Made by a program: the position numbers and the translations under genes | DNA from: Thermoplasmata archaeon | Lineage (GTDB): Archaea > Thermoplasmatota > Thermoplasmata > Halarchaeoplasmatales > Halarchaeoplasmataceae | Length of the DNA: 64,000 nt | NCBI GenBank assembly: GCA_003560595.1 | Contig: PWKY01000066.1 | Location: 226 to 64,225, forward strand | Direction: 5' to 3' | Notes under the pieces: generated by a model | Told to the model about the DNA's origin: nothing | The model's database searches: none | The model's input: the letters and a program-made list of their open reading frames with translations, nothing else | Shown: in pieces, positions 14,554 through 49,394 of the stretch | Layout of the letters: each line of letters opens with the position of its first letter | Position numbering within the stretch: position 1 is the stretch's first letter

Positions 14554-15792
14554 TCAAGCGAACATAACCTGTTTCTTTATCTTTCGCTCAGGTGAATCGG
14601 TGAGTACTTTATCTATCGCCTTTAAGAAATCTTCTTGGGTTATGACGTCATTTCCCTCTCTTAGCGTGAGCATCCCCGCCTCGGTACATATGGCTTTGAT
14701 ATCTGCTCCAGATGCCCCTTCAGTTTTCTTTGCAATGGTGTTCAGATCAACATCGTCATGTATGGGCATCATCAATGTATGGATACCAAAGATCTTCTTT
14801 CTGGCTTCCTTGTCGGGCAGTGGTACGGATATGATCCTATCAAAACGTCCTGGACGGAGTAGAGCTTTATCCAACAGTTCGGGCCTATTTGTAGCACCCA
14901 TGACTTTTACCTCACCTACAGGCTCAAAGCCGTCAAGTTCAGCCAGAAGCTGCATCATGGTCCTTTGGACTTCCCTATCACCTGATGTGGCCTGTTCCAT
15001 CCTTCTGGTAGCCACGGAGTCGAGTTCGTCTATGAATATTATAGAGGGTGATTTTTCTTTCGCCATCTGGAATAGCTCCCTGACCATCCGTGCCCCTTCT
15101 CCGATATATTTCTGTACCAACTCAGAACCTACCAGCTTGATAAAGGTAGCGTGAGTTCTGTTAGCAGCGGCCTTGGCGATCATGGTTTTACCTGTTCCGG
15201 GAGGTCCTACGAGCAGCACTCCTTTTGGTGGTTCGATACCCATGTGTTGATATCTTTTGGGGTTAAGTAAAGGCTCTTCAACGGTTTCTTTTACCTCTCT
15301 GATCTGATCTTCAAGTCCACCGATATCATCGTAGGTTATTTCCGGTTTTTCCAGTATCTCTGCACCCATAATATTTGGGTCAACAGATGGTGGAAGTACT
15401 TTTACTATGGAAAGAGTTTGTTTATTCAACGCAACTCTGGTTCCTGGACAGATATCTTTGGCTGAAAGATAATCTGCCACCGTAACGATAAAATCTGGGC
15501 CGGTAGAACTCTCTATTATAGCTTCACCGTGGGGTAAAGTTTCCTTTATATTCCCTACTATAAGAGGTGGCTTTTTCAATCTCGCCAATTCCTTCTTGAT
15601 CTCTCGGGTTTCCCTCTTTATCCTGTTCAGTTCCTCTACTATGTAATCCCTTTCCCCACCGTACTGGGTTTCTGCAAGGAGTTCATCGTGTTTACGTTGT
15701 AACTCCTCTATCCGCCGTGTGAGTCCTCTTGAAGAACCCTTCAAATCGTCGTCATCCAAACGATTCACCATATGTGTATTGTTTAAATTCAT
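14554..15792 (-). CDS. pan: Proteasome-activating nucleotidase (AAA+ ATPase)
   Basis: N-terminal coiled coil, Walker A GPPGTGKTM, Walker B IIFIDELD and the AAA second region of homology. Confidence 0.9.
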   Translation of the reverse strand: MNLNNTHMVNRLDDDDLKGSSRGLTRRIEELQRKHDELLAETQYGGERDYIVEELNRIKRETREIKKELARLKKPPLIVGNIKETLPHGEAIIESSTGPDFIVTVADYLSAKDICPGTRVALNKQTLSIVKVLPPSVDPNIMGAEILEKPEITYDDIGGLEDQIREVKETVEEPLLNPKRYQHMGIEPPKGVLLVGPPGTGKTMIAKAAANRTHATFIKLVGSELVQKYIGEGARMVRELFQMAKEKSPSIIFIDELDSVATRRMEQATSGDREVQRTMMQLLAELDGFEPVGEVKVMGATNRPELLDKALLRPGRFDRIISVPLPDKEARKKIFGIHTLMMPIHDDVDLNTIAKKTEGASGADIKAICTEAGMLTLREGNDVITQEDFLKAIDKVLTDSPERKIKKQVMFA

Positions 15793-19986: not shown

Positions 19987-20766
19987 ATGAAATCTATGTT
20001 TGGAGAATCGAGTGAAAGTGACGTTACAAGAGCTATAGTGCGAGAATTCGGGAAGGTATTGGACGAGTATTCCGAATCCGATGTGATAATAGTGGGTGCG
20101 GGGCCGAGCGGACTGATGGCCGCCCGGGATCTGGCTTCCAAAGGTCATAAAACACTGGTGGTCGAGAGGAACAATTATCTGGGTGGTGGCTTCTGGTTGG
20201 GAGGTTATCTTATGAACACGGTTACAGTGCGCCCCCCTGCTCATAAGATCCTCGACGAGCTCGGTATACCGTACAAGAAGAGTGGCAATCTATACACTGC
20301 GTTGGGTCCTCACGCGTGCTCTAAGTTGATCGCTGCGGCCTGCGACGAGGGGATACAGATACTTAACATGACCGAGTTCGACGATGTGGTATTCAGAGGT
20401 AAGAAAAAGGTAGGCGGGGTGGTGATTAACTGGACACCCGTATCCGCATTACCACGGCAGATAACCTGTGTCGACCCTATATCGTTGGAGTCCAAGATGA
20501 TAATCGATTCCACCGGACACGATGCATGTGTGGTTAAGAAACTAGAGGAAAGGGGTCTGCTGGAAACTTCGGGTTTCGGTGGCATGTGGGTACAAGAGTC
20601 CGAAGATCTTGTGGTGGAGCACACCGGTAAGGTCATGGACGGTCTAGTGGTTACCGGGATGGCGGTTTCCACGACCTATGGTTTACCCCGTATGGGACCC
20701 ACCTTCGGTTCGATGCTCGTGTCCGGGAGGAAAGCCGCCGAGGTGGTAGATGAGCTTCTCAGTTGA
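19987..20766 (+). CDS. thi4: Thiamine thiazole synthase Thi4 (archaeal type)
   Basis: FAD-binding [11 protein letters not shown] motif and the [11 protein letters not shown] block; collinear with Thi4/THI1. Confidence 0.85.
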
Positions 20767-21511
20767 ATTACCATTTGATAGAACGATATTGTACCTCCCA
20801 GCTGATCTTGAACATCTAGACGGCGACGAGATGCTGGAATTCACCGAAGAGTACACCGGTTTACCGGTAGAATTACGGGATGATTTCTTCCATGAATATT
20901 ACCGTGAGGACCTACCTAGAAGATCGGCTCAGACCAGGGTCAGGGATCTTACCGAAAGGAGGTTCATCGAACCCCTTCCGGTGGAGGTCGATCTTGAAGA
21001 GAAGATAATACATGGAAGGAACGTCCGGGGTATTATCTACGACGGGCGGAGGTTAACAAAGATGATACGGGAGTATATAGCTCCGGCGAAGGGCCATCAT
21101 GTGGTCATCACCGATAGAGCGGTGGGTACTATGGAGGAGCACGATGCCCGCTATCATATTCGAACGCTTATCTGTTCGATCCCTTCTCTTATCTCCACTT
21201 CCGGTATCGTAGAAGGTCCGGCGAAACCGAGGGAGTATTACACCGGCTTGAAGTCGGATCTCGGATTCGAGCCCATGAAGTACGGAGACACTCGTATGAC
21301 GGATGCGGTGAAGTCATACATCCTTCAATCTCTCGCATGGAGGATCACCGGGGAGCCCTTTTGTGAGGATAAAGGGTGCCGTCTTTACAATTCTCACTGG
21401 CAGAAAGAAGTGGTCGAGTATCAGCTGAAAGGTGAGCTGTGTGACGAAGACATGAAATTATTTCGAGAGTTCCAAAATTTTATGTATTCAAAGGATGATG
21501 CGAGGATATGA
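20750..21511 (+). CDS. Conserved hypothetical protein between thi4 and the ThiF-like E1
   Basis: 253-aa ORF whose boundaries overlap thi4 and the downstream E1 gene (ATGA coupling); Cys-containing C-terminal region. Confidence 0.4.
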
Positions 21512-22497
21512 CAAGGTATTCTCGCCAAACCGTGCTGCCCGAGATCGGGGACGAAGGCCAGAAACGTTTGAGCGAGAGCCGGGTAGCTATAATAGGACTA
21601 GGCGGGCTGGGTTCGGTGATGGCGGAAGGGTTGGCGAGAGCCGGTGTGGGTTATCTTAGAGTGGTGGACAGGGATGTGCTGGAATTATCCAACCTTCAGC
21701 GCCAGGCACTTTATGGCGAAGGAGATATCGGGAAAGCCAAAGCCGAGTTGGTAAAAGAGAAGATAGGCCGGATCAACTCCGAGGTTAGTGTTGGATCTCA
21801 CGTGGTCGAGGTAGGTTCGAAAAATATTGAAAAACTCATAGATGGTGCAGATATAGTATTAGATGCCACGGACAACATGAAAACCCGTTTCATACTCAAC
21901 GATGCCTGTGTGAAACACGGGATACCTTGGATTTATACTTCTATCTTAGGCACCTACGGTATGACCATGGATGTTGTACCCGGAAAAGGCCCCTGCTTAC
22001 GCTGCTTGCTCGTGAAGATGCCGGAACCCGGGAGTATGGAGACCTGTGCCACCGCCGGTGTGCTTTTTTCTTTACCACGGATCATGGCGAACATAGCCGC
22101 CACCGAGGCAGTGAAATATTTAATCGGGGCGGATACGAGAAATACTTTACTGACGATAGATATTTGGAAGAACGATTACGAACAGATCCAAGTGACTCAA
22201 AGAGAAGACTGTGGATGCTGCGCTAAAAAGGATTTCGAATATCTGCAAAAAGAAGACGATCTCACCACTTCCATGTGCGGTAGAGAAGCGGTACAGGTGA
22301 CACCCGAGGAGAGAGTTGAGGTCGATCTAGACAAGTTCGTTAAAAAGTACGGCGGAAAGATGGTAGGGAGATCATTGGCAAAGTTTGAAATGGATGCTTA
22401 CACACTCACACTCTTCAAAGACGGAAGGCTTATCGTCGAGGGGACTGAAGATCCTAAAAAGGCGATAAGTATTTACTCGGAGTACATAGGTAGATGA
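21508..22497 (+). CDS. ThiF/MoeB/HesA-family E1-like adenylyltransferase with an additional C-terminal domain of about 80 aa
   Basis: YSRQ start, nucleotide-binding IIGLGGLGS motif and two CxxC pairs (CLRCLL, CGCCAKK). Confidence 0.8.
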   Translation: MTRYSRQTVLPEIGDEGQKRLSESRVAIIGLGGLGSVMAEGLARAGVGYLRVVDRDVLELSNLQRQALYGEGDIGKAKAELVKEKIGRINSEVSVGSHVVEVGSKNIEKLIDGADIVLDATDNMKTRFILNDACVKHGIPWIYTSILGTYGMTMDVVPGKGPCLRCLLVKMPEPGSMETCATAGVLFSLPRIMANIAATEAVKYLIGADTRNTLLTIDIWKNDYEQIQVTQREDCGCCAKKDFEYLQKEDDLTTSMCGREAVQVTPEERVEVDLDKFVKKYGGKMVGRSLAKFEMDAYTLTLFKDGRLIVEGTEDPKKAISIYSEYIGR

Positions 22498-22501
22498 TAA
22501 G

Positions 22502-23680
22502 ATGGACGTAGAAGATATCAGAAAGGACTTTCCTTTAGTCGATGAATACATATACTTTGATAACGCCTGTTTGACCCTTAAACCGTATCAGGTGATCGAT
22601 GCGGTGGATGAATATTATCATAAGTTTCCCGTCTGCGCCGGACGCAGTTCTCACAGTTTATCCAACCTACTCACCCGTAAGATAATATCCGCTCGTGACT
22701 CGATACGATCGTTTATAAATGCAGACGATCCGTCTGAGATAGTATTCACCAAAAATACTACAGAGTCCATCAACCTGGTCGCACGTGGTATGGGTTTTGA
22801 AAAAGGAGACGCGGTGCTTTCAACGGATAAAGAACACAACAGCAACCTGGCACCGTGGCTTTTGCTCAAGAAAGATAAGGGTATAGAATACGATCAGGTC
22901 CCTTCACTACCGGACGGCACCTTCGATCTAGAGAAGTTCGAGGAGATGATGGATAACGACGTCAAGATGGTCTCCATGGTACACACATCTAATCTGGATG
23001 GTGTGACCATACCTTCAAAAGAGATAGGTAAGATAGCTCACGATCACGACGCTTACTTTATGCTGGATGCCGCCCAAAGCGTACCCCATAGATCTATAGA
23101 CGTGAAGGAGCTGAACGTTGATTTTTTGGCTTTCTCGATCCACAAGATGCTGGGTCCCACCGGTGTCGGCGTACTCTACGGTCGTAGAGAGTTGATGGAT
23201 GAGTTGGACCCCTTGGTGGTCGGTGGAGGCAGTGTAAAGGACACATCATACGAAGAAGTAACTCTACACTCGTCGCCCAATAAGTTCGAAGGCGGACTAC
23301 AGAATTACGCGGGCCTTTGCGGTGTGAAGGCTGCTGTGGATTATTTGCTCGACATCGGTTTGGATAAGATAGAGAAACACGAGATCGAGCTCAACAAACG
23401 TGCCACCGACGCTTTGAAGGATAGAGTCACCATACTCGGTCCCGAGGATCCCGAGTCGAGATCAGGTATATTTAACTTCAACCTAAATGAACTGGGCTGC
23501 CACGAAACCGCCTTACTACTGGAGGAAAGTAAGATACTCACCAGGGGTGGTATGCAGTGTGTACATTCATGGTACAATAAACGAGGTTTGGAAGGGGGAA
23601 CAAGGATTTCTTTTTACCTTTATAACACTGTAGAAGAAGTGGATATACTGGTCGAGACCATGGAGAGCCTGCTGGGTTAG
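22502..23680 (+). CDS. Cysteine desulfurase (class V aminotransferase, SufS/CsdA-like)
   Basis: PLP-lysine context FSIHKMLGPTGVGVLYG and an N-terminal block typical of NifS/SufS. Confidence 0.8.
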   Translation: MDVEDIRKDFPLVDEYIYFDNACLTLKPYQVIDAVDEYYHKFPVCAGRSSHSLSNLLTRKIISARDSIRSFINADDPSEIVFTKNTTESINLVARGMGFEKGDAVLSTDKEHNSNLAPWLLLKKDKGIEYDQVPSLPDGTFDLEKFEEMMDNDVKMVSMVHTSNLDGVTIPSKEIGKIAHDHDAYFMLDAAQSVPHRSIDVKELNVDFLAFSIHKMLGPTGVGVLYGRRELMDELDPLVVGGGSVKDTSYEEVTLHSSPNKFEGGLQNYAGLCGVKAAVDYLLDIGLDKIEKHEIELNKRATDALKDRVTILGPEDPESRSGIFNFNLNELGCHETALLLEESKILTRGGMQCVHSWYNKRGLEGGTRISFYLYNTVEEVDILVETMESLLG

Positions 23681-23961
23681 TCCTCTTTGTTCTCTTCCAT
23701 CACCGGAGCTAATTCCTCGAATAATCTATCGACGATCTCCTTGTCGGTGGTTTTGAACAGCAGCTTTCCCGAAGGGTAGAATCCTACTTCTACATCTTGA
23801 TCTGGATGTAAAGCAACGATGATGACTTCCGAGGTGAACTTCATCTTGTAACCTTTGTTTTCCAACCGATCCTGCACTCCCTCCATGTTGATCTTCGTCT
23901 TCTTTTCAGGCTCGGCAACGTATGCTCCGGAATCCGAACAGGGTTCTACCACATGATACAT
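23677..23961 (-). CDS. Small hypothetical protein
   Basis: 94-aa ORF coupled to the upstream ThiI-like gene; no motif recognised. Confidence 0.3.
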   Translation of the reverse strand: MYHVVEPCSDSGAYVAEPEKKTKINMEGVQDRLENKGYKMKFTSEVIIVALHPDQDVEVGFYPSGKLLFKTTDKEIVDRLFEELAPVMEENKED

Positions 23962-23964
23962 TTT

Positions 23965-24591
23965 TCAACCACCTTTTTTCTCGAATAACAATCCTTCGAT
24001 GAGATCTTCTACATCTAGATATACTTCCTGCTTTTTAACCTCTTTCACCGTACTGCTTACACGGGGTCCGTCGGGAGTCAGCATGCAGCACACCGCCGGC
24101 TGTGTGGATATATCAAAGGTCCCGATCTTTTTTGCGATCTGGATCACCTCTTCTTTATCCAGTCCTATCAACGGCCGGTGTATCGTGATATCTACTGCGT
24201 CGTCTTCTGAAGCGAGATTAGAAAGCGTCTGTGAAGCCACCTGTCCCAGTGACTCACCGGTAGCTATCGCATCCGCACCTATTTGTTTTGCTAGTCTTTC
24301 AGCTCCCCGGTACATCATCCTGCGGCATAAGATGCACTGGAAGTGGCTGCTTGCGTTCTTAGCGATTGATTTTTCGACCTCTGAAAAGTCACAGGTATAA
24401 AAGTCGATATCGTCATGTATTTTCTGCAGCCTTTCAGCCAAACTGTGAACGGCTGCCACCGTGTTGTCATCGGTGAACGGACGGGTATCCATGTATAGTA
24501 AGCTGACCTCGAAACCCGCCTCCGCTAAAAGGTGTGCCGCTACGGGGGAGTCGATACCTGCCGACAGTAATAAAACTACCTTCTGGACCAT
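23965..24591 (-). CDS. ThiI-like PP-loop ATP pyrophosphatase (tRNA 4-thiouridine synthase catalytic domain only, no THUMP domain)
   Basis: PP-loop LLSAGIDSPVAAHLL; 208 aa. Confidence 0.7.
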   Translation of the reverse strand: MVQKVVLLLSAGIDSPVAAHLLAEAGFEVSLLYMDTRPFTDDNTVAAVHSLAERLQKIHDDIDFYTCDFSEVEKSIAKNASSHFQCILCRRMMYRGAERLAKQIGADAIATGESLGQVASQTLSNLASEDDAVDITIHRPLIGLDKEEVIQIAKKIGTFDISTQPAVCCMLTPDGPRVSSTVKEVKKQEVYLDVEDLIEGLLFEKKGG

Positions 24592-42490: not shown

Positions 42491-43819
42491 CTAAAATAAG
42501 CCCTCCACGTTGTTTATGTCATCCTTGGTAACGAATACCATCATCTCGTCGCCCTCCTTTATACTCGTTTTTCCCTTCGGTATTATAGTTCTATCGTTAC
42601 GGATGATAGCTCCGATTATGCAGCTATCGGATAGTGACAGATCTTCAAGTTTTTTTCCCACTACTGGTGAATCCTCTGAAACGTGTGTCTCGAGTATGTA
42701 TAGATCACCGCCGTGGAAAGAGATGGCTTTTAGAGGATTTAATTCCCGGGCCAGCCTGAGCATTGCACGTGATGTTACCAACTGCGGCGAAGCGGCCATG
42801 TCTATACCTACTGTTTCGATGAGGGATTTAAGTCCTAGTTCTCTAACTACCGCGATGGTCTTATCCACACCATATATCTTTGCCAAAAGAGAGACCAGTA
42901 CGTTAAATTCTTCGGATGAAGTTGTAGATGCGAAAGCATCAACCCTCAGTATCCCCTCTTCTATCAATAAGGATTTTTCTCTAGCATCCCCCTCAATGAT
43001 CTCAACCGTTTTCAACATCTCCGCAGCACGCCTTGCACGGGTTCGAGAGGAGTCTATCAGCTTGATCTTTATACCTCTTTTCTCCAAAACCCTAGCTACG
43101 TTGATACCTATATCCGTAGCACCAATGATCATGATTGTGTGTACATCGCTACGGCGAGTACCTATGAGTTTAAGCATCTGTTTCTCGGCCTTTTTTCCCT
43201 CGCTCATCACTATTAGCGTGTCTCTTTCTTTGATGACCGTATCCCCATGAGGTACCAGAACCTCATTCCCTCGGATGATCGCCCCTAGATTAACCCTACT
43301 TGGCAGTTTGATCTGTTTTAATGGTTTACCTTCAATTTTAGACTTGTGTAATACTTTGAACTCCACGACGTTGATCTTTCCCCCCATGAATAGGTTCGTA
43401 TCTATAGCCGATGGTATCTCGATTATATTTGATATCTTCTTGGCGATCAATAATTCGGGTGATACGACATAATCAACACCGATCTTAGAGAACCTTCGGG
43501 ATATGGGTTTAGAGATGTACTCTAGACCGTTTATACGTGCTATGGTCTTACAGCCTGCAGCTTTGGCGATAGCACAGGAGACCAGGTTCGCTTCATTATT
43601 GTCGGTAACTGCAAAAAAATAGTTTCCCTGATCGATGTCTAGAGAGTTTAGTAGTTCTGGTCGAGCGCCGTTTCCTTTGACCACTTTGACGTCCAGCCCC
43701 CTCGCTCGTTTACAGGCACTCTCCCTCTTATCTACTATTATAACGTCATGCCCCTTACGCCTTATCGACTCGGCTAATTCGTATCCCACTTCTCCGGCAC
43801 CGATGATTATGACTTTCAT
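42491..43819 (-). CDS. trkA: Trk system NAD-binding subunit (two RCK domains)
   Basis: IIGAGEVG and IIGATDIG Rossmann motifs. Confidence 0.85.
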   Translation of the reverse strand: MKVIIIGAGEVGYELAESIRRKGHDVIIVDKRESACKRARGLDVKVVKGNGARPELLNSLDIDQGNYFFAVTDNNEANLVSCAIAKAAGCKTIARINGLEYISKPISRRFSKIGVDYVVSPELLIAKKISNIIEIPSAIDTNLFMGGKINVVEFKVLHKSKIEGKPLKQIKLPSRVNLGAIIRGNEVLVPHGDTVIKERDTLIVMSEGKKAEKQMLKLIGTRRSDVHTIMIIGATDIGINVARVLEKRGIKIKLIDSSRTRARRAAEMLKTVEIIEGDAREKSLLIEEGILRVDAFASTTSSEEFNVLVSLLAKIYGVDKTIAVVRELGLKSLIETVGIDMAASPQLVTSRAMLRLARELNPLKAISFHGGDLYILETHVSEDSPVVGKKLEDLSLSDSCIIGAIIRNDRTIIPKGKTSIKEGDEMMVFVTKDDINNVEGLF

Positions 43820-43856
43820 GCGCTCTCACTATTACAGGGCGGCCATATAGAAAACA

Positions 43857-44153
43857 CTATAAAAAATTATCCGTTAGACCCCTTTTCAATAAGCTCTGAT
43901 GAGTCATCATCTTCACGTTTTCTCCCCCTTCGACACCTAGCCTTTTCATGTCACCTTCTCTCAGTTTTATATATCCGTTCTCGATCAGAGGATCTGAAAA
44001 AATATTCACCAGGATGTCCCTTCTCTCAGAGCGTATCACAGCGAGATCTCGATCATCTAAACCTAGTTCTCTCATGATCTTTGTATTAACCCTAGCCGTT
44101 CCTTGTATTTTTACTAGACTAGGTTCAACTATCAGGTCTACACTCTTAGGCAT
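43857..44153 (-). CDS. Stand-alone Cdc48/VAT N-terminal-like double-psi beta-barrel domain protein
   Basis: G.ARV..KIMRELGL..D.AVI....R..LV (psi-loop pattern matching VAT-N), 98 aa. Confidence 0.5.
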   Translation of the reverse strand: MPKSVDLIVEPSLVKIQGTARVNTKIMRELGLDDRDLAVIRSERRDILVNIFSDPLIENGYIKLREGDMKRLGVEGGENVKMMTHQSLLKRGLTDNFL

Positions 44154-44181
44154 GTAAGTATATTATAGCACGTCCTCATTA

Positions 44182-44868
44182 TCAAATTTTTCCCTCTTTA
44201 ATCATCTTTATCCTTCGAGAAGCATCGATACATTCTCGATGATCAAGGGTGTTATCGAATTCTGGGTTTTCTAATAGATAAACTAATTCATTTATCAGTT
44301 TAGATATCCCATGAGAAAAACTCCAGCTAGACAGGTATTCACAATGTATATCTCCTCCACGCTCCGGCGGCGCGATGTTTGGATGGTATATCTGTGACTG
44401 CCATTTTACTCTGGGAGCCACATAAGGATAGGCCCTTGCTAATGACAAAGATAATTTATGTTTAAAGGAGTTGGCGATCATATCTCCGATCAAAACAGGA
44501 CCGGGTATGTTTTTTAATGTAACCTCTACATCGAATCTATTTTCGGAAGAGTCACAGGAAACGCTGTATCCATCGTTTTTTAAAGACTTGACCTCGTTTA
44601 AAATCCTCTGTTCCCAAATCTCTTCTGGAAGTCTGTTTGGATCGTCAGATGGTCTGAGTATCAGTACTTCTCCATGGTCAAAAGATACATTTGACCAGGT
44701 CATATGAGTCGAGATCATTTCACCATCAAGTTCAAATACGTGTGGTTCATGCAATTCCCAGTAAGAACTTACGTCTGAAAGTGTTTTAGAAACTTTATCT
44801 TGGGGCGAAACGGATACACTAACCCTGTCCCCTGTGCCCTCTTTTAAGATCGATAATACCTTACTCAT
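44182..44868 (-). CDS. Ubiquitin-conjugating enzyme E2-like protein (UBC fold with HPN motif and catalytic Cys) with an N-terminal extension of about 80 aa
   Basis: QIYHPNIAPPERGGDIHCEYLSSWSFSHGISKLINELVYLLENPEFDNTL aligns block by block with eukaryotic UBC (KIYHPNI..GSICLDIL..WSP..ISKVLLSI.SLL.DPNPDDPL). The upstream helix-1 and beta-meander regions are also collinear. Confidence 0.75.
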   Translation of the reverse strand: MSKVLSILKEGTGDRVSVSVSPQDKVSKTLSDVSSYWELHEPHVFELDGEMISTHMTWSNVSFDHGEVLILRPSDDPNRLPEEIWEQRILNEVKSLKNDGYSVSCDSSENRFDVEVTLKNIPGPVLIGDMIANSFKHKLSLSLARAYPYVAPRVKWQSQIYHPNIAPPERGGDIHCEYLSSWSFSHGISKLINELVYLLENPEFDNTLDHRECIDASRRIKMIKEGKI

Positions 44869-45004
44869 TAAAAGCGGTGAAAGGGCCGATAGATAAAAGT
44901 TTTACTAACAAAAACTCCCGTAAACTATAAATCTTCTATACATTATGAGCTAGAGCCCACTCGAAGAGTTTATTTGGGTTAACATAGATGACCATTTGCA
45001 AACG

Positions 45005-45020
45005 CCTATTTATTGTGGGG
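45005..45020 (+). promoter_or_regulatory. Candidate archaeal TATA box (TTTATTTATT) about 25 bp upstream of the giant repeat-protein gene
   Basis: AT-rich box upstream of the TTG start at 45030. Confidence 0.3.
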
Positions 45021-45029
45021 ATGTAGAAA

Positions 45030-48000
45030 TTGTCAGGTAAATACCTCAAAGCGAGGCAACTCGCAAAAGAGATGGAAAAGCTCGCAAAAAAGACTGCCGA
45101 GGATAAGAAGGAAGCCTTAGATAATCTAGAGAAGGCCGAAGAACTACTAGATGATTCAAAGGAGCTGGGGGCAGATGTTGAGGGGGCTGAAGAACTCATA
45201 GATGAAGCCCGGGAACACTTCGAAGAAAAGGAATTAGAAAAGACGATCGAAAAGGTAGAAAAAGGGTTGGAAATAATTCGTGAAGCCAATAGTAAGAGGG
45301 TCACCGATCTGATGAAAGGTACCGAAGAACTTCATGAAATGATCGCAGAGGAAGATAGATACAAAGAGTCTCTAGAACTCCTTGATCAGGCTAAGGAGGC
45401 GATGGAGGATGATGATTTTAAAGGTGCCATGGAAAAGGCAAAAGAATCTTTGGACCTAGCTCTGCTCGAGATACAAGAAAAACTGACTGATGAATTCGCC
45501 ACCTTGGATTCAATGGTCATCTCTCTTGAAGATAAAGGGGAAGATCCAGAAGAGATCGAAACCAAGGTGCAGGAAGCTAGAGATGCCATGGAACAAGATG
45601 ATTTCCAGACCGCCGTATCACTGGTTAATGAATGCAAAGAATTACTGCATAAGGACTTGAAGGCATTGGTCGAGGAAGAGATAAATAAAGTGAAGAAGCA
45701 GGAGGAGATGATAAGAGAGGGTGGAGGAACAACTGTAGATATCGAAGAGATGATAAGCAAAGCTAGAAACCGTATCAAGGATGGTCACTTTGAAAGTGCC
45801 GTAGAATTCGTCGATGACGCAAAAAATGAATTGAACGAGGCCATGGAAGCTGTAGTTGAAAAGGTGGAAGGCGATATCGAAGGATCACTCAATGAAGCTA
45901 AAGAGATCGAATGTGACATAAGCAAGATAGACGAGATGAGAGAAAGGCTCGTCGACTTAAAATATGAAGGTAAATACAGCGAAGCTTATGAACATATCCA
46001 GAAAATAATTGACAAGCTCGAGGAATTAAAATTCCAAAGAGTGTTAAAGACCATCGCGGAGTCCAGAGACCATTTTATCAAGGGCAAAGAGATAGGGATA
46101 GACATATCTGAACCCATGGGTCTTTTGAATAAGGCGAGGACCTCTCTAAAGGAAGGGGATCATAAAGGAGCATTGGATTGGGCAAATGCCGGGAGACAGA
46201 AGGTAAGGGAGCTTGTGGAGGAACACGAACGCATCGAGATGCGTATAGCCGAAGCCAAGAGAGTAAAGCAGGACCTTGTTGATATAGGCATAGAGCTAAC
46301 CGAAGCAACCAGTATAATATCAGCATCTGAGGAGGCCCTAGGAAAAAAGGATTACGGCGCAGCCGAAGAAAAGCTGGAAGAATTCGACGGATATATCGAT
46401 AAAAATGCCTATGAAGAGATAATGAAACTGGTAGAAGATCTAGAGGTCAAATTAAATATCGCAGAAGATATGGATCTAGATGTTGCTGAGTACACTGAAA
46501 GTTTGGAAGTGGCCATCGCAAATACTAAATCAGCCGAGTATGCAAAGGCTGGTAAGATAACCTTAGATACTTTAGAAGAACTGAATGATCTGATAGAAGA
46601 AGCACTGGATAAACGTATAAAAAACATGAGAGAACTCGTACAAAAGACACAGCAAGAGATGACTGAGGAAGAGGACCTGGAAGAGTTGGAGAAAGTAGAG
46701 GGATTAGTAGAGGAAGTAGAGAGTGCGTTCGATGAAAGCGATTATCGCAAAGCTCACGATTGTTTAAAGAACGTATCTTCCGAGATCAAAAGATGGAGGG
46801 TTGGAGAGGCGGAAGAAAGATATACACGTGTCAAGGAACTGGTCGGTTTGGTCAAAGAACTCGAGATTGAAAATATAGATGAGGATGCGTATGAAGAAAG
46901 GCTTGAGAAAGTCACTGAGGCATTCGACGATGACGATTATACCAACGTTGTAAAGCTCTCCGATGAGATGCTTGATAGTCTTAATAAAGAGTTCGAAAGC
47001 ACTGCTGAGGAAGTATTCTCCCGGGCCAAGATGGAGGCCGTTAAAGCAAAGAAGGCCGGGGTCGATATCGAAGATCTAAGAAGCAGACTGATCGACTGTA
47101 AGAAACTCATACGAAATCAGGACTTTACCTTAGCGATAAGGAATTCCTTGAAGGTCGAAGAGGACGCTAAAAGGATGACGAAAAAAAGAAAATCCAGTTA
47201 CGATCTTATATCCTCTTTATCTACAACTTTAACCAAGCTCAGAAAGAAGGGAGAGATCGAAGATATAACTCCTGCTAAGGAATTATTACTTAAAGCAAAG
47301 ACCAGTTTCCAGGATAAAGATTATACTCAAGCTGAAAATTTGGCACTACAGGCTAAAGAAAAGATAGGCGAACTCACAGCAAAGAGCGAATTCGAATCGA
47401 AACTCAGGAAGCTTCGGGAAAACCTAGAGGAAGCCAATGCTCTTGGTATCGACACTACAGATATAGAACTTGATCTAGATGAAGTAACCTCAATTATGAA
47501 AGAAGGAGATATCGAAGAAGCTGTGGAGGGTATAAGAGAGGCTCAGGAGAATATAAAGGAAAAGATGAGTGATTTTGTAAAACCTGAGATCGAACGCACC
47601 CGTGACATAATCAACTCTGCTAACAACATCGGTGTTGACGTATCTACTCCTGAAGCCATACTTGAAGAGGTCGAGAGTTTATGGGAAGCTGGTGACTTCT
47701 CAAAAGCTTTGACCGAGATAGAAGAATGTAAACGAGAGATCGAGGGCATCAAGAACAAAAGCAAACGTGCAGCAAGTGGTGTAAAACGTGTAAAAGATAG
47801 GATATCAAAGGCCAAGGATCTTAATGCGGATGTTAAAGAACCGGAAAAATACATGAATCAAGCTATAAAAGCACTGAAGGAAGACAGGTATGAAGATTCA
47901 ATCAAATTCACAAAAAAGGCAGAGGAGAGTGTTGAAGAGGCTGAGATGGTTAGGGTTTACAGCATACTGGAAACCTTCAATAAGAAAATAGCAGAAGTAA

Positions 48001-49394
48001 GAAAGGAAGGAGTGAACACCGCCTTCGCAGATAACCTGATGAAGCGTGCTGAAAAAGCCATGGATGCAGGTAAATACCACGAAGCGATCAACTTGGCTAT
48101 GCAGAGTGAAGGGGAGGTAGAGAGGATAGAACTGCAGAAGGATATCGCAAAAAGGAGTATCTCTACAACTCAAAAGAAGATCGAGGATGCCAAGGAAGAA
48201 GGCATAAAGGTAGGCGACGCAAAAAAACTATTAGACCAGGCAAAACAAGCATACAAAGGTGGCTTTTACGTAAAGGCATTCGATAACGCAGTTAAAAGCG
48301 GAGACGACGTCAACCATGTACTCAAAGCACATCAGGAGGTATCAGAAAGATTAGAGTCACTGCCCAAACTGATAGATGCCATGGATGGGCTTGAAGTAGG
48401 GGAAAAAGAATTACAAAAACGATTTGAAGACATCAAACGTTCTATGAGTAGAGGAAGGTACACCAAGGCTTTAGAAACCATCAAAGAAAACGAGAAAAGT
48501 TTGGAAGAAGTCAAAGAGCGTTTACATGATAAAATAGATGAAATCGAAAAAACTGTAAATAATTATCAGGATCAGGGAAAAGAAGTGGGGTCCGCATCTG
48601 AGTTACTTCAAAACGCAAAAGGGAACGTAGATATGGGTGAGTTGATCGAAGCGTGTAACCAGATACAAAGTGCTAAAAAGGAGTTCGGAGGAGATGCTGT
48701 AGAAGGGTATCAAAAATATATCGGCGAGGCTAAAGAATTGATACAGATGGCTAAGAAGTTCGGAGCATCCATCACAGATGCTCAAGGGCTGATCAAGGAG
48801 GCCACTTCTTTGGAAGGGGAAGATATATCTGGTGCTAGAGATAAGGCCCACGAAGCACTAGAGTGCATAGAAAAGTCTTTAGAACCCTACAGTCCCAATA
48901 TATCCTTATCTTCAAAAGCCAAGCTTCAGAAGGGAGATTGGAATACTATCAAAGTCGAATTTAAAAATACTGGTAGAGGGGTCGCGAAAAGTCCCGAGCT
49001 ATCCGTGTCAGGCGGCGAATTGAAAAAAGTTGATCTACCAGCCATGCTCAAGGCCGATGAGGAATTGGAATTAGAAATTAAGTTGAAACCCATCGATGAA
49101 GTAGTTACTCTTACCGCTTTGGGAACTCGAATATTCGACCAAAAAGAACTGACCGATGAAGAAGAGATCGAAGTTGTTGAAAAGTTGTACGGATTTGTAG
49201 AGGCGGAGGGAGGAGAGCACTGCAATATATGCGGTGGTACGATAAAAGAAGGGTTAGAGATAATCCGATGTAGTTGTGGAGAAACCATTCATAAACCGTG
49301 TGGGGAAAGGGAAGGTAAATGCCCGAACTGCGGGGTAGAATTGAAGGAAAAGAAAAAGAAGAAGGCATCTAAACGGGTGGCTTTGAAGATATGA
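45030..49394 (+). CDS. Giant (1454 aa) acidic helical-repeat protein: about 18 tandem TPR/MIT-like helical-hairpin units separated by coiled coil, with a C-terminal C4HC3 RING/PHD-like zinc finger and a poly-Lys tail
   Basis: Recurrent [LI]G[IVA]D[IV]s..e.ll..A.......GD[FY]..A......A unit about every 35-40 residues. C-terminus HCNICGGTIKEGLEIIRCSCGETIHKPCGEREGKCPNCG. TTG start in the track; first in-frame ATG at 45072. Confidence 0.6.
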   Translation: MSGKYLKARQLAKEMEKLAKKTAEDKKEALDNLEKAEELLDDSKELGADVEGAEELIDEAREHFEEKELEKTIEKVEKGLEIIREANSKRVTDLMKGTEELHEMIAEEDRYKESLELLDQAKEAMEDDDFKGAMEKAKESLDLALLEIQEKLTDEFATLDSMVISLEDKGEDPEEIETKVQEARDAMEQDDFQTAVSLVNECKELLHKDLKALVEEEINKVKKQEEMIREGGGTTVDIEEMISKARNRIKDGHFESAVEFVDDAKNELNEAMEAVVEKVEGDIEGSLNEAKEIECDISKIDEMRERLVDLKYEGKYSEAYEHIQKIIDKLEELKFQRVLKTIAESRDHFIKGKEIGIDISEPMGLLNKARTSLKEGDHKGALDWANAGRQKVRELVEEHERIEMRIAEAKRVKQDLVDIGIELTEATSIISASEEALGKKDYGAAEEKLEEFDGYIDKNAYEEIMKLVEDLEVKLNIAEDMDLDVAEYTESLEVAIANTKSAEYAKAGKITLDTLEELNDLIEEALDKRIKNMRELVQKTQQEMTEEEDLEELEKVEGLVEEVESAFDESDYRKAHDCLKNVSSEIKRWRVGEAEERYTRVKELVGLVKELEIENIDEDAYEERLEKVTEAFDDDDYTNVVKLSDEMLDSLNKEFESTAEEVFSRAKMEAVKAKKAGVDIEDLRSRLIDCKKLIRNQDFTLAIRNSLKVEEDAKRMTKKRKSSYDLISSLSTTLTKLRKKGEIEDITPAKELLLKAKTSFQDKDYTQAENLALQAKEKIGELTAKSEFESKLRKLRENLEEANALGIDTTDIELDLDEVTSIMKEGDIEEAVEGIREAQENIKEKMSDFVKPEIERTRDIINSANNIGVDVSTPEAILEEVESLWEAGDFSKALTEIEECKREIEGIKNKSKRAASGVKRVKDRISKAKDLNADVKEPEKYMNQAIKALKEDRYEDSIKFTKKAEESVEEAEMVRVYSILETFNKKIAEVRKEGVNTAFADNLMKRAEKAMDAGKYHEAINLAMQSEGEVERIELQKDIAKRSISTTQKKIEDAKEEGIKVGDAKKLLDQAKQAYKGGFYVKAFDNAVKSGDDVNHVLKAHQEVSERLESLPKLIDAMDGLEVGEKELQKRFEDIKRSMSRGRYTKALETIKENEKSLEEVKERLHDKIDEIEKTVNNYQDQGKEVGSASELLQNAKGNVDMGELIEACNQIQSAKKEFGGDAVEGYQKYIGEAKELIQMAKKFGASITDAQGLIKEATSLEGEDISGARDKAHEALECIEKSLEPYSPNISLSSKAKLQKGDWNTIKVEFKNTGRGVAKSPELSVSGGELKKVDLPAMLKADEELELEIKLKPIDEVVTLTALGTRIFDQKELTDEEEIEVVEKLYGFVEAEGGEHCNICGGTIKEGLEIIRCSCGETIHKPCGEREGKCPNCGVELKEKKKKKASKRVALKI

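Follow-up and report, generated by a model that had tools for sequence, protein, structure and literature searches.

Among the described systems closest to the locus analyzed here are the Trk potassium transporters and the Cdc48/p97/VAT ATPases. Bacterial Trk is composed of the TrkH channel and the TrkA RCK gating ring, with SapD/TrkE additionally needed in E. coli, and it is regarded as a two-part machine that underlies the whole osmotic strategy of salt-in halophiles. In p97, adaptors (UBX, VIM, or SHP type) or substrates bind the cleft between the Nn and Nc subdomains of the N-domain. Here, we describe a gene on the minus strand of a 64,000-nucleotide (nt) stretch of contig PWKY01000066.1 from a Thermoplasmata archaeon (the whole stretch is called the window below), encoding a double-psi beta-barrel (DPBB) protein of 98 amino acids (aa) directly before trkA and trkH. 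We read the gene as encoding a Cdc48-N-type barrel that stands on its own and has joined an operon for potassium uptake. The original prediction, which had recognized the barrel and taken its position beside an E2-like gene as suggestive of a ubiquitin link, was right about the fold and weak in its ubiquitin implication.

The trkA gene of the window (two TrkA_N and two TrkA_C domains) and its trkH gene are canonical and abut each other. In contrast to bacterial TrkA-TrkH, a conserved third gene, that of the DPBB, precedes the pair, and the Trk literature searched mentions no comparable component. Compared with the Nn subdomain of Cdc48/p97/VAT (PF02359), the window protein is free-standing, lacks both Nc and AAA domains, is only 17 to 20% identical to real Cdc48 N-domains, carries an HxxLL...LL tail of its own, and has trkAH rather than an ATPase as its genomic partner.

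A free-standing barrel of the Cdc48 Nn type

With the single 98-aa sequence as the query, a word-indexed homologue search returned only the self match, and phmmer against the PDB gave nothing significant. The Pfam family CDC48_N (PF02359) matched the window protein alone with an E value of 2.9e-4 and 21.4 bits, below the 35.1-bit gathering threshold, and Molydop_binding (PF01568; 20.8 bits versus a cutoff of 26.8) and the NCBIfam FwdD model NF042908 (20.7 bits versus 175) likewise remained below their cutoffs. When 1.84 billion representatives were searched exhaustively with HMMER, 56 relatives emerged at an E value of ≤1e-3, nearly all of which were free-standing proteins of 88 to 135 aa. Among 70 family members, CDC48_N was matched by 64 at an E value of <0.01 (best, 2.4e-14), Molydop_binding by 33, and MazE_antitoxin, weakly, by 6, and a precomputed PF02359 assignment was present on many of them. 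A family profile searched against the PDB retrieved the Cdc48/VCP-derived DPBB 7dvf (4e-7), the Aeropyrum Cdc48 DPBB 7dg9 (3e-4), and many Cdc48/p97 N-domains.

The AlphaFold2 model built from the 70-sequence alignment (pLDDT, 89.6; pTM, 0.79) has the element order b1-b2-a1-b3-b4-b5-a2-b6, followed by a short and less confident C-terminal helix, and superposes on the duplicated beta-beta-alpha-beta arrangement of Nn. Foldseek searches of the PDB returned p97/Cdc48/VAT N-domains and designed VCP-derived DPBBs, with a TM score of ∼0.8 and a root mean square deviation of 1.2 to 1.6 Å over ∼83 residues. Per-column analysis of the alignments identified G18, R21, D54, R65, D68, and L72 as invariant throughout the family, and judging from the alignments with PDB sequences they correspond to the duplicated Cdc48 barrel motif (compare "LSDD...IRMNR..R.NL.V" in p97). 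The claimed match to the N-terminal domain of Cdc48/VAT is thus borne out by family-level CDC48_N matches, PDB profile searches, and structural comparison alike.

The chain ends 14 residues past the barrel, leaving room for neither the Nc beta-clam (CDC48_2) nor the AAA domains D1 and D2. The protein is therefore a stand-alone, monomeric DPBB of the Cdc48/VAT Nn type and not a complete N-domain, and because Nc is absent, the inter-subdomain cleft used by p97 for ubiquitin-system adaptors cannot form.

Other barrel types were considered. AbrB, MazE, and SpoVT are dimerizing half-barrels, each formed from a ∼50-residue homodimerizing chain with a swapped hairpin; this fold was ruled out, given that the DPBB is complete in one chain. 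Fold recognition, by which CDC48_N was to be told from AbrB, gave Cdc48-N as the best match with no AbrB-type structure among the top matches, and no AbrB, MazE, or SpoVT structure occurred among the PDB matches of either the family profile or Foldseek. A DNA-binding autoregulator of the dpbb-trkAH promoter, acting in a K+ or osmotic response in the manner of the AbrB/MazE cradle-loop barrels, would fit a small barrel with two invariant arginines (R21 and R65), the first position in the operon (common for autoregulators), and the weak MazE_antitoxin matches in 6 of the 70 relatives. However, the fold is a monomeric DPBB and not a swapped-hairpin dimer, and by alignment R21 and R65 correspond to structural psi-loop arginines of Cdc48-N and not to DNA-contact residues of AbrB. 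Moreover, the isoelectric point ranges from 4.5 to 9.1 within the trk-linked clade, unlike what a conserved DNA-binding surface would imply, and relatives are fused to RCK_C and not to DNA-binding contexts; we give this reading little chance of being right.

A barrel of the FwdD/Molydop_binding type was rejected in view of the subthreshold scores and of a neighborhood made up of trkA, trkH, and an E2-fold gene with no fwd or molybdoenzyme genes, and the JGI name "formylmethanofuran dehydrogenase subunit D" carried by relatives is a misannotation. Considering that Molydop_binding/FwdD barrels bind a cofactor dinucleotide, the protein could be imagined as a nucleotide or dinucleotide sensor reporting to Trk, but we hold this to be very unlikely: no ligand-binding residues could be identified, and both sequence and structure lie nearer to Cdc48-N than to the molybdopterin barrels.

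The open reading frame (ORF), running from ATG to TAG at the coordinates first described, is a real gene, with relatives aligning from the first residues of the protein onward and a dN/dS value of 0.135 between two orthologues. That the ORF might be a pseudogene or a recently split-off piece of a Cdc48 gene was rejected on account of the low identity to Cdc48, the breadth of the family, and the same dN/dS value. An Rfam scan of positions 43600 to 45100 matched no family. The window holds no DPBB family member other than the trk-linked copy, and an identical 98-aa protein is also present on soda-lake sediment contigs.

Conserved gene order around trkA and trkH

In the window, the E2-fold gene, a spacer of 28 nt, the DPBB gene, a spacer of 37 nt, and trkA follow one another on the minus strand, with the trkH start codon abutting the trkA stop codon; the 28-bp, same-strand proximity of the 98-aa ORF to an E2 gene was correctly predicted, as coordinates and Pfam matches of the neighbors confirm. 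A single-protein search of genome contigs found nothing, and a 5-sequence alignment recovered six genome loci and two metagenome loci. Gene context was compared at 10 loci, namely the window, L003, L014 (=L004), L015 (=L005), L016, L017, L018, L011, L013, and L019. At all 10, trkA directly follows the DPBB gene on the same strand, trkH comes next wherever the contig continues, and the gaps within the block measure ∼1 to 41 nt. Between loci, TrkA is 64 to 74% and the DPBB 35 to 54% identical, with only L015/L016 and L013/L019 being closer, and the 10 loci represent about eight lineages. Upstream arrangements (Table 1) and the genes downstream of trkH differ between loci; rearrangement is found on both sides of the three-gene block and nowhere inside it. 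Conservation of the E2-DPBB pair, which the original prediction had named as a check, was thus half borne out: that pair is loosely conserved, while barrel-trkA-trkH is invariant. Relatives come from metagenome-assembled genomes of Thermoplasmata, including "Candidatus Haladaptatiplasma halalkaliphilum" (L018), a member of the halophilic order "Candidatus Halarchaeoplasmatales," for which a salt-in strategy has been inferred (PMC11332174).

The A/T-rich, TATA-like box AAAATTTGATAATG lies 24 to 37 nt upstream of the DPBB start codon and overlaps the E2-fold stop codon. Comparable boxes occur at approximately -38 to -24 in loci with divergent or antisense genes ahead of the DPBB gene, which there requires a promoter of its own; on this comparison of sequences, AAAATTTGATAATG may be the promoter of a dpbb-trkAH operon. 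The Shine-Dalgarno-like GTGAGAG stands 4 to 10 nt upstream of the trkA ATG, and a GTGA/GGTGA-type motif is similarly placed in ∼5 to 6 of 9 loci. Such a motif would be expected before an internal cistron, and a regulatory reading of it is weakly suggested at most. A T6 run was also observed at approximately 43864..43869 (minus strand; …AATTTTTTATAG), across the last codons of the barrel ORF, with another T6 inside the ORF.

Two further observations concern these loci. In the second TrkA_N Rossmann domain of TrkA (42491..43819), the glycine motif (residues ∼233 to 238) reads G-A-T-x-I-G and not GxGxxG in 9 of 9 aligned orthologues, and the second nucleotide site of TrkA may be degenerate in the trk-linked clade. 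Locus L019 (JBKHKA010000004.1) was binned as "Candidatus Aenigmatarchaeota," yet it shares 83% identity in TrkA and 72% in the barrel with the soda-lake contig L013; together with the DDE transposase immediately upstream, this suggests misbinning or recent transfer.

The C-terminal tail, RCK_C fusions, and a proposed role in potassium uptake

In a neighbor-joining tree of the family, all trk-linked proteins fall into one clade, which is marked by residues rare elsewhere in the family (S41, S42, K45, D46, K71, H85, L88, L89, and the C-terminal L98). H85, L89, and L98 occur in 100% of the 15 trk-clade sequences versus 21%, 1%, and 1% of other family members, respectively. The tail that contains them is predicted with low confidence when the protein is modeled alone (pLDDT of 75 and 48 in the last two blocks) and may be a docking helix.

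A second association with RCK_C domains was found among the relatives. P0047 (273 aa) and P0055 (315 aa) consist of a DPBB, an apolipoprotein-like helical linker, and a C-terminal TrkA_C domain (E values of 1e-12 to 8e-14), and searches with both proteins revealed the same architecture in at least 57 clusters (90% identity) from Methanofastidiosia, Theionarchaea, Methanospirillum, and other euryarchaea. Profile-profile alignment with hhalign established the homology of the fusion N terminus with the trk-linked clade (99.3%; E value, 2e-20). The AlphaFold2 model of a fusion shows two confident domains, matching Cdc48-N barrels and RCK_C domains (5f29, with a TMt of 0.90, and TM1088, 3jxo), joined by a low-confidence linker. 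These proteins bear source names as varied as "PhoU and TrkA domain," "KhtT," "gas vesicle protein," "FwdD," and "TrkA C-terminal domain-containing protein." They share with the window protein a homologous barrel and an association with RCK_C, and they differ from it in being one chain with a long helical linker, in belonging to methanogen-related lineages, and in their SulP or small-gene-cluster context, P0047 being encoded 33 nt downstream of a SulP/STAS transporter (L023, 3608-6228). Two separate ties thus connect the barrel with RCK_C, one through fusion proteins in some lineages and one through the neighboring TrkA gene in others. The combination of a small N-terminal domain with RCK_C also resembles KhtT, the RCK_C regulatory subunit of the K+/H+ antiporter KhtU (PDB 7agv), and JGI gives the name KhtT to some of the fusions, although the similarity is restricted to the RCK_C part and weak (E value, 0.02). 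The N-domain of KhtT may be a related barrel, and we regard this analogy as a lead and not a result.

Fold and homology, invariant gene order, a clade-specific tail, and DPBB-RCK_C fusions are the observations that support a link between the barrel and TrkAH: same-strand adjacency to trkA-trkH is conserved in diverged genomes, and fusion to RCK domains occurred independently in relatives. Tentatively, we favor the explanation that the protein is an accessory component of TrkAH and a putative TrkA/TrkH binder. In halophilic salt-in Thermoplasmata (Halarchaeoplasmatales and relatives), its gene would open a dpbb-trkA-trkH transcription unit, and the product would serve TrkAH potassium uptake by binding proteins, either as a small accessory or regulatory subunit or as an assembly factor. 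It would engage the TrkA_C-containing RCK gating ring via the barrel surface, the HxxLL...LL tail, or both, and could in this way alter K+ flux by modulating the uptake system or its assembly.

Non-trk paralogues were observed in other settings. Several belong to a conserved, uncharacterized archaeal cluster of seven to nine small genes, for which all-versus-all blastp confirmed orthology between L006, L007, L008, L021, and L024, encoding a DPBB (with or without TrkA_C), three to four phasin-like coiled-coil paralogues, a transmembrane (TM)/coiled-coil protein, a Zn-ribbon or Prok-RING_2 protein, and a PRC-barrel protein of ∼160 aa. A protein of 1,254 aa with four "stretches" (P0033), considered as a DPBB fusion, was a false lead, being repeat rich and tail-fibre-like. 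In a complete Thermoplasmata genome (CP070629; L006, 8001-9476), the gene for the 88-aa paralogue P0019 precedes, by 46 nt, that for an AAA ATPase of 387 to 393 aa, which has two N-terminal TM helices, is membrane anchored, and lacks an N-domain of its own; beyond this pair lie an amino acid permease-Usp fusion and then an MscS channel. P0019 and the ATPase may represent a "split" Cdc48-like arrangement.

This pair and the paralogue P0011, whose gene is divergent from that of a 666-aa AAA protein, raise the possibility that the trk-linked barrel is a detachable N-domain that binds substrates or adaptors on behalf of an AAA+ unfoldase such as VAT/Cdc48, PAN, or a membrane AAA, for example where membrane complexes are assembled or undergo quality control. 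The closest structural relatives, all of them N-domains of AAA+ proteins, are consistent with such a role in trans. We nevertheless judge it unlikely, considering that an AAA gene adjoins none of the 10 trk-linked loci, that the window's single AAA gene (PAN-like; 14554..15792) lies at a distance of 28 kb, and that the trk clade has a tail motif of its own, unlike the paralogues.

Several points weigh against the accessory explanation. All 10 loci fall within one order-level clade, so that inherited synteny contributes to the conserved gene order, and the DPBB evolves much faster than TrkA. Paralogues occur in non-Trk contexts, in the small-gene cluster with its PRC barrel and beside AAA ATPases, and the fusion gene for P0055 (L024, 6001-6948) heads such a cluster and not a transporter locus. 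Oligo-T can terminate archaeal transcription, and the T6 run at the end of the barrel ORF might act as a partial terminator that partly uncouples expression of the barrel from that of trkAH. In the literature searched, the coverage of which was incomplete, no paper links CDC48_N with Trk or describes such stand-alone barrels; this absence does not confirm the idea as new.

The narrow sampling of clades, the differing contexts of the paralogues, and the fast evolution of the barrel would also agree with no functional link at all, the gene sharing a promoter or an inherited position with trkAH and serving an unrelated role, perhaps that of the small-gene-cluster paralogues. To this we assign a low but appreciable probability. 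Against it stand the integrity of the block at 10 of 10 loci, although both of its borders have been rearranged repeatedly and a transposase has inserted immediately upstream in L019, the independent DPBB-RCK_C fusion, and the conservation of clade-specific residues.

Table 1. Coordinates of the features discussed (window positions unless a locus is named)
Feature	Location	Strand	Basis or remark
Stand-alone Cdc48-N-type DPBB protein P0001, 98 aa	43857..44153	-	
Barrel core, residues 4-84, beta-beta-alpha-beta twice	43902..44144	-	Model secondary structure and alignment conservation
C-terminal tail, residues 85-98, HQSLLKRGLTDNFL, H-x-x-L-L...(L/F)-L-COOH	43860..43901	-	Clade conservation, low pLDDT
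trkA, 442 aa, TrkA_N-TrkA_C-TrkA_N-TrkA_C	42491..43819	-	Pfam TrkA_N 4.7e-45, TrkA_C 8.2e-29
trkH, 498 aa	40994..42490	-	Pfam TrkH 3e-61
E2-fold (UQ_con) neighbor, 228 aa	44182..44868	-	Pfam UQ_con 7.6e-12
A/T-rich TATA-like element AAAATTTGATAATG	44177..44190	-	Sequence; candidate promoter
Shine-Dalgarno-like GTGAGAG before trkA ATG	43823..43829	-	Sequence; weak evidence
Giant coiled-coil protein, 1,454 aa, C-terminal Prok-RING_1 finger	45030..49394	+	E 3e-4, below threshold; divergent from E2-fold gene
Upstream of DPBB: E2-fold gene directly	Window, L014, L018		Gap 28-70 nt, same strand
Upstream of DPBB: E2, then two orthologous antisense membrane-protein genes	L015, L016, L017		
Upstream of DPBB: same two antisense genes, then contig end	L003		E2 probably beyond
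Upstream of DPBB: giant RING gene directly divergent	L011		No E2
Upstream of DPBB: pirin gene	L013		
Upstream of DPBB: DDE transposase	L019		No E2 or RING within 8 kb
Antisense gene pair	L015 6739-7897; L016 6739-7924; L017 2928-4144; L003 37-1214		
Small-gene cluster	L006 4983-7771; L007 3519-6689; L008 1430-4543; L021 3524-6699; L024 6001-8973		

The E2-fold and RING neighbors and implications of the locus

The HPN motif is invariant in six E2-fold orthologues; in the alignment column that holds the catalytic residue in UbcH10, they have H, R, S, Y, D, or R. Only the window protein has a Cys in this loop, one residue later, whereas five of the six orthologues have none there; the sole invariant Cys, C213, is near the C terminus. 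The N-terminal ∼80 residues of the L004 orthologue give weak Pfam matches to ubiquitin and Rad60-SLD. From these sequence features, the E2-fold protein is probably UEV-like, possibly fused to a ubiquitin-like (UBL) domain, and not a conjugating enzyme, which leaves the case for a ubiquitin role of the barrel weaker still. The gene is directly upstream of the DPBB gene at 3 of the 10 loci, behind two antisense genes at 3 or 4, and absent from 3; it is variably linked and probably not part of the DPBB-trkA-trkH unit. The two antisense genes, which are absent from the window, are orthologous between loci, encode ∼195-aa proteins (one clearly with multiple TM segments), and have no Pfam matches.

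The giant RING protein, which consists almost wholly of coiled coil, is conserved at 37 to 48% identity in seven related genomes, and its gene adjoins the block at 7 of the 10 loci. That position would agree with a wider version of the ubiquitin reading, in which the DPBB would be an adaptor for the E2-fold protein, the RING protein, or both, and might, for example, connect a RING/UEV module with Trk or another target. The short same-strand gap of 28 to 70 nt between the E2-fold and DPBB genes in the window, L014, and L018 would agree with this, as would a window E2-DPBB spacer in which no oligo-T run was found, the L011 arrangement with the RING gene directly divergent from the DPBB gene, and the Prok-RING_2 proteins that accompany two distant paralogues inside or close to their small-gene clusters (L006 and L024). 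However, the two antisense genes part E2 from DPBB in L015, L016, L017, and probably L003, and neither an E2 nor a RING gene is near L019 or L013. Furthermore, several genomes share the order of the larger region comprising aIF2-alpha, QueH, RING, and E2, a co-linearity that inheritance of gene order would predict and that points to shared descent. Among the window ORFs scanned, no ubiquitin, E1, or JAB gene is adjacent. With the catalytic Cys missing from five of six E2 orthologues and no Nc subdomain to complete a p97-type adaptor cleft, an adaptor role of this kind seems to us highly improbable. The suggestion that an N-domain beside an E2 points to ubiquitin is accordingly weak, given variable linkage, the absent Cys, and the absent Nc, and a potassium-transporter accessory is more likely than a piece of a ubiquitin system.

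The only E1-like gene among the scanned window ORFs encodes a ThiF-type enzyme (21508..22497) and lies 22 kb from the E2-fold gene. It belongs to a cluster at 19987..24591 that encodes Thi4, a putative metallopeptidase (DUF6775), the ThiF-type E1-like protein (329 aa), a class-V aminotransferase/desulfurase-like protein, an unannotated 94-aa ORF, and a ThiI-like PP-loop protein, and that looks like a sulfur-carrier/SAMP-type system.

The slightest likelihood is given to a broader proposal, in which the giant RING protein, the Cys-less UEV-like (possibly UBL-fused) protein, and DPBB-TrkAH would form one module, with the barrel coupling RING/UEV-type protein modification or scaffolding to the K+ channel. 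In its favor, the RING gene flanks the block at 7 of 10 loci, also where E2 is lacking, and Prok-RING_2 genes recur near distant paralogues. Such a module, if real, would foreshadow in archaea the ubiquitin-type regulation of an ion transporter.

Returning to the explanation that we favor, in which the barrel is an accessory of TrkAH, the analysis bears on annotation and on the biology of these archaea. Two names need correction, "FwdD" for the small barrels and "E2" for the probably noncatalytic neighbor. The tip barrel of Cdc48/VAT exists as an independent and diversified archaeal family, which bears on how the N-domains of AAA+ proteins were assembled. A third conserved and always colocated gene would point to an unrecognized regulator or assembly factor of potassium uptake, and the recurrent pairing of barrel and RCK_C, by adjacency and by fusion, would define a new transporter-regulatory module.
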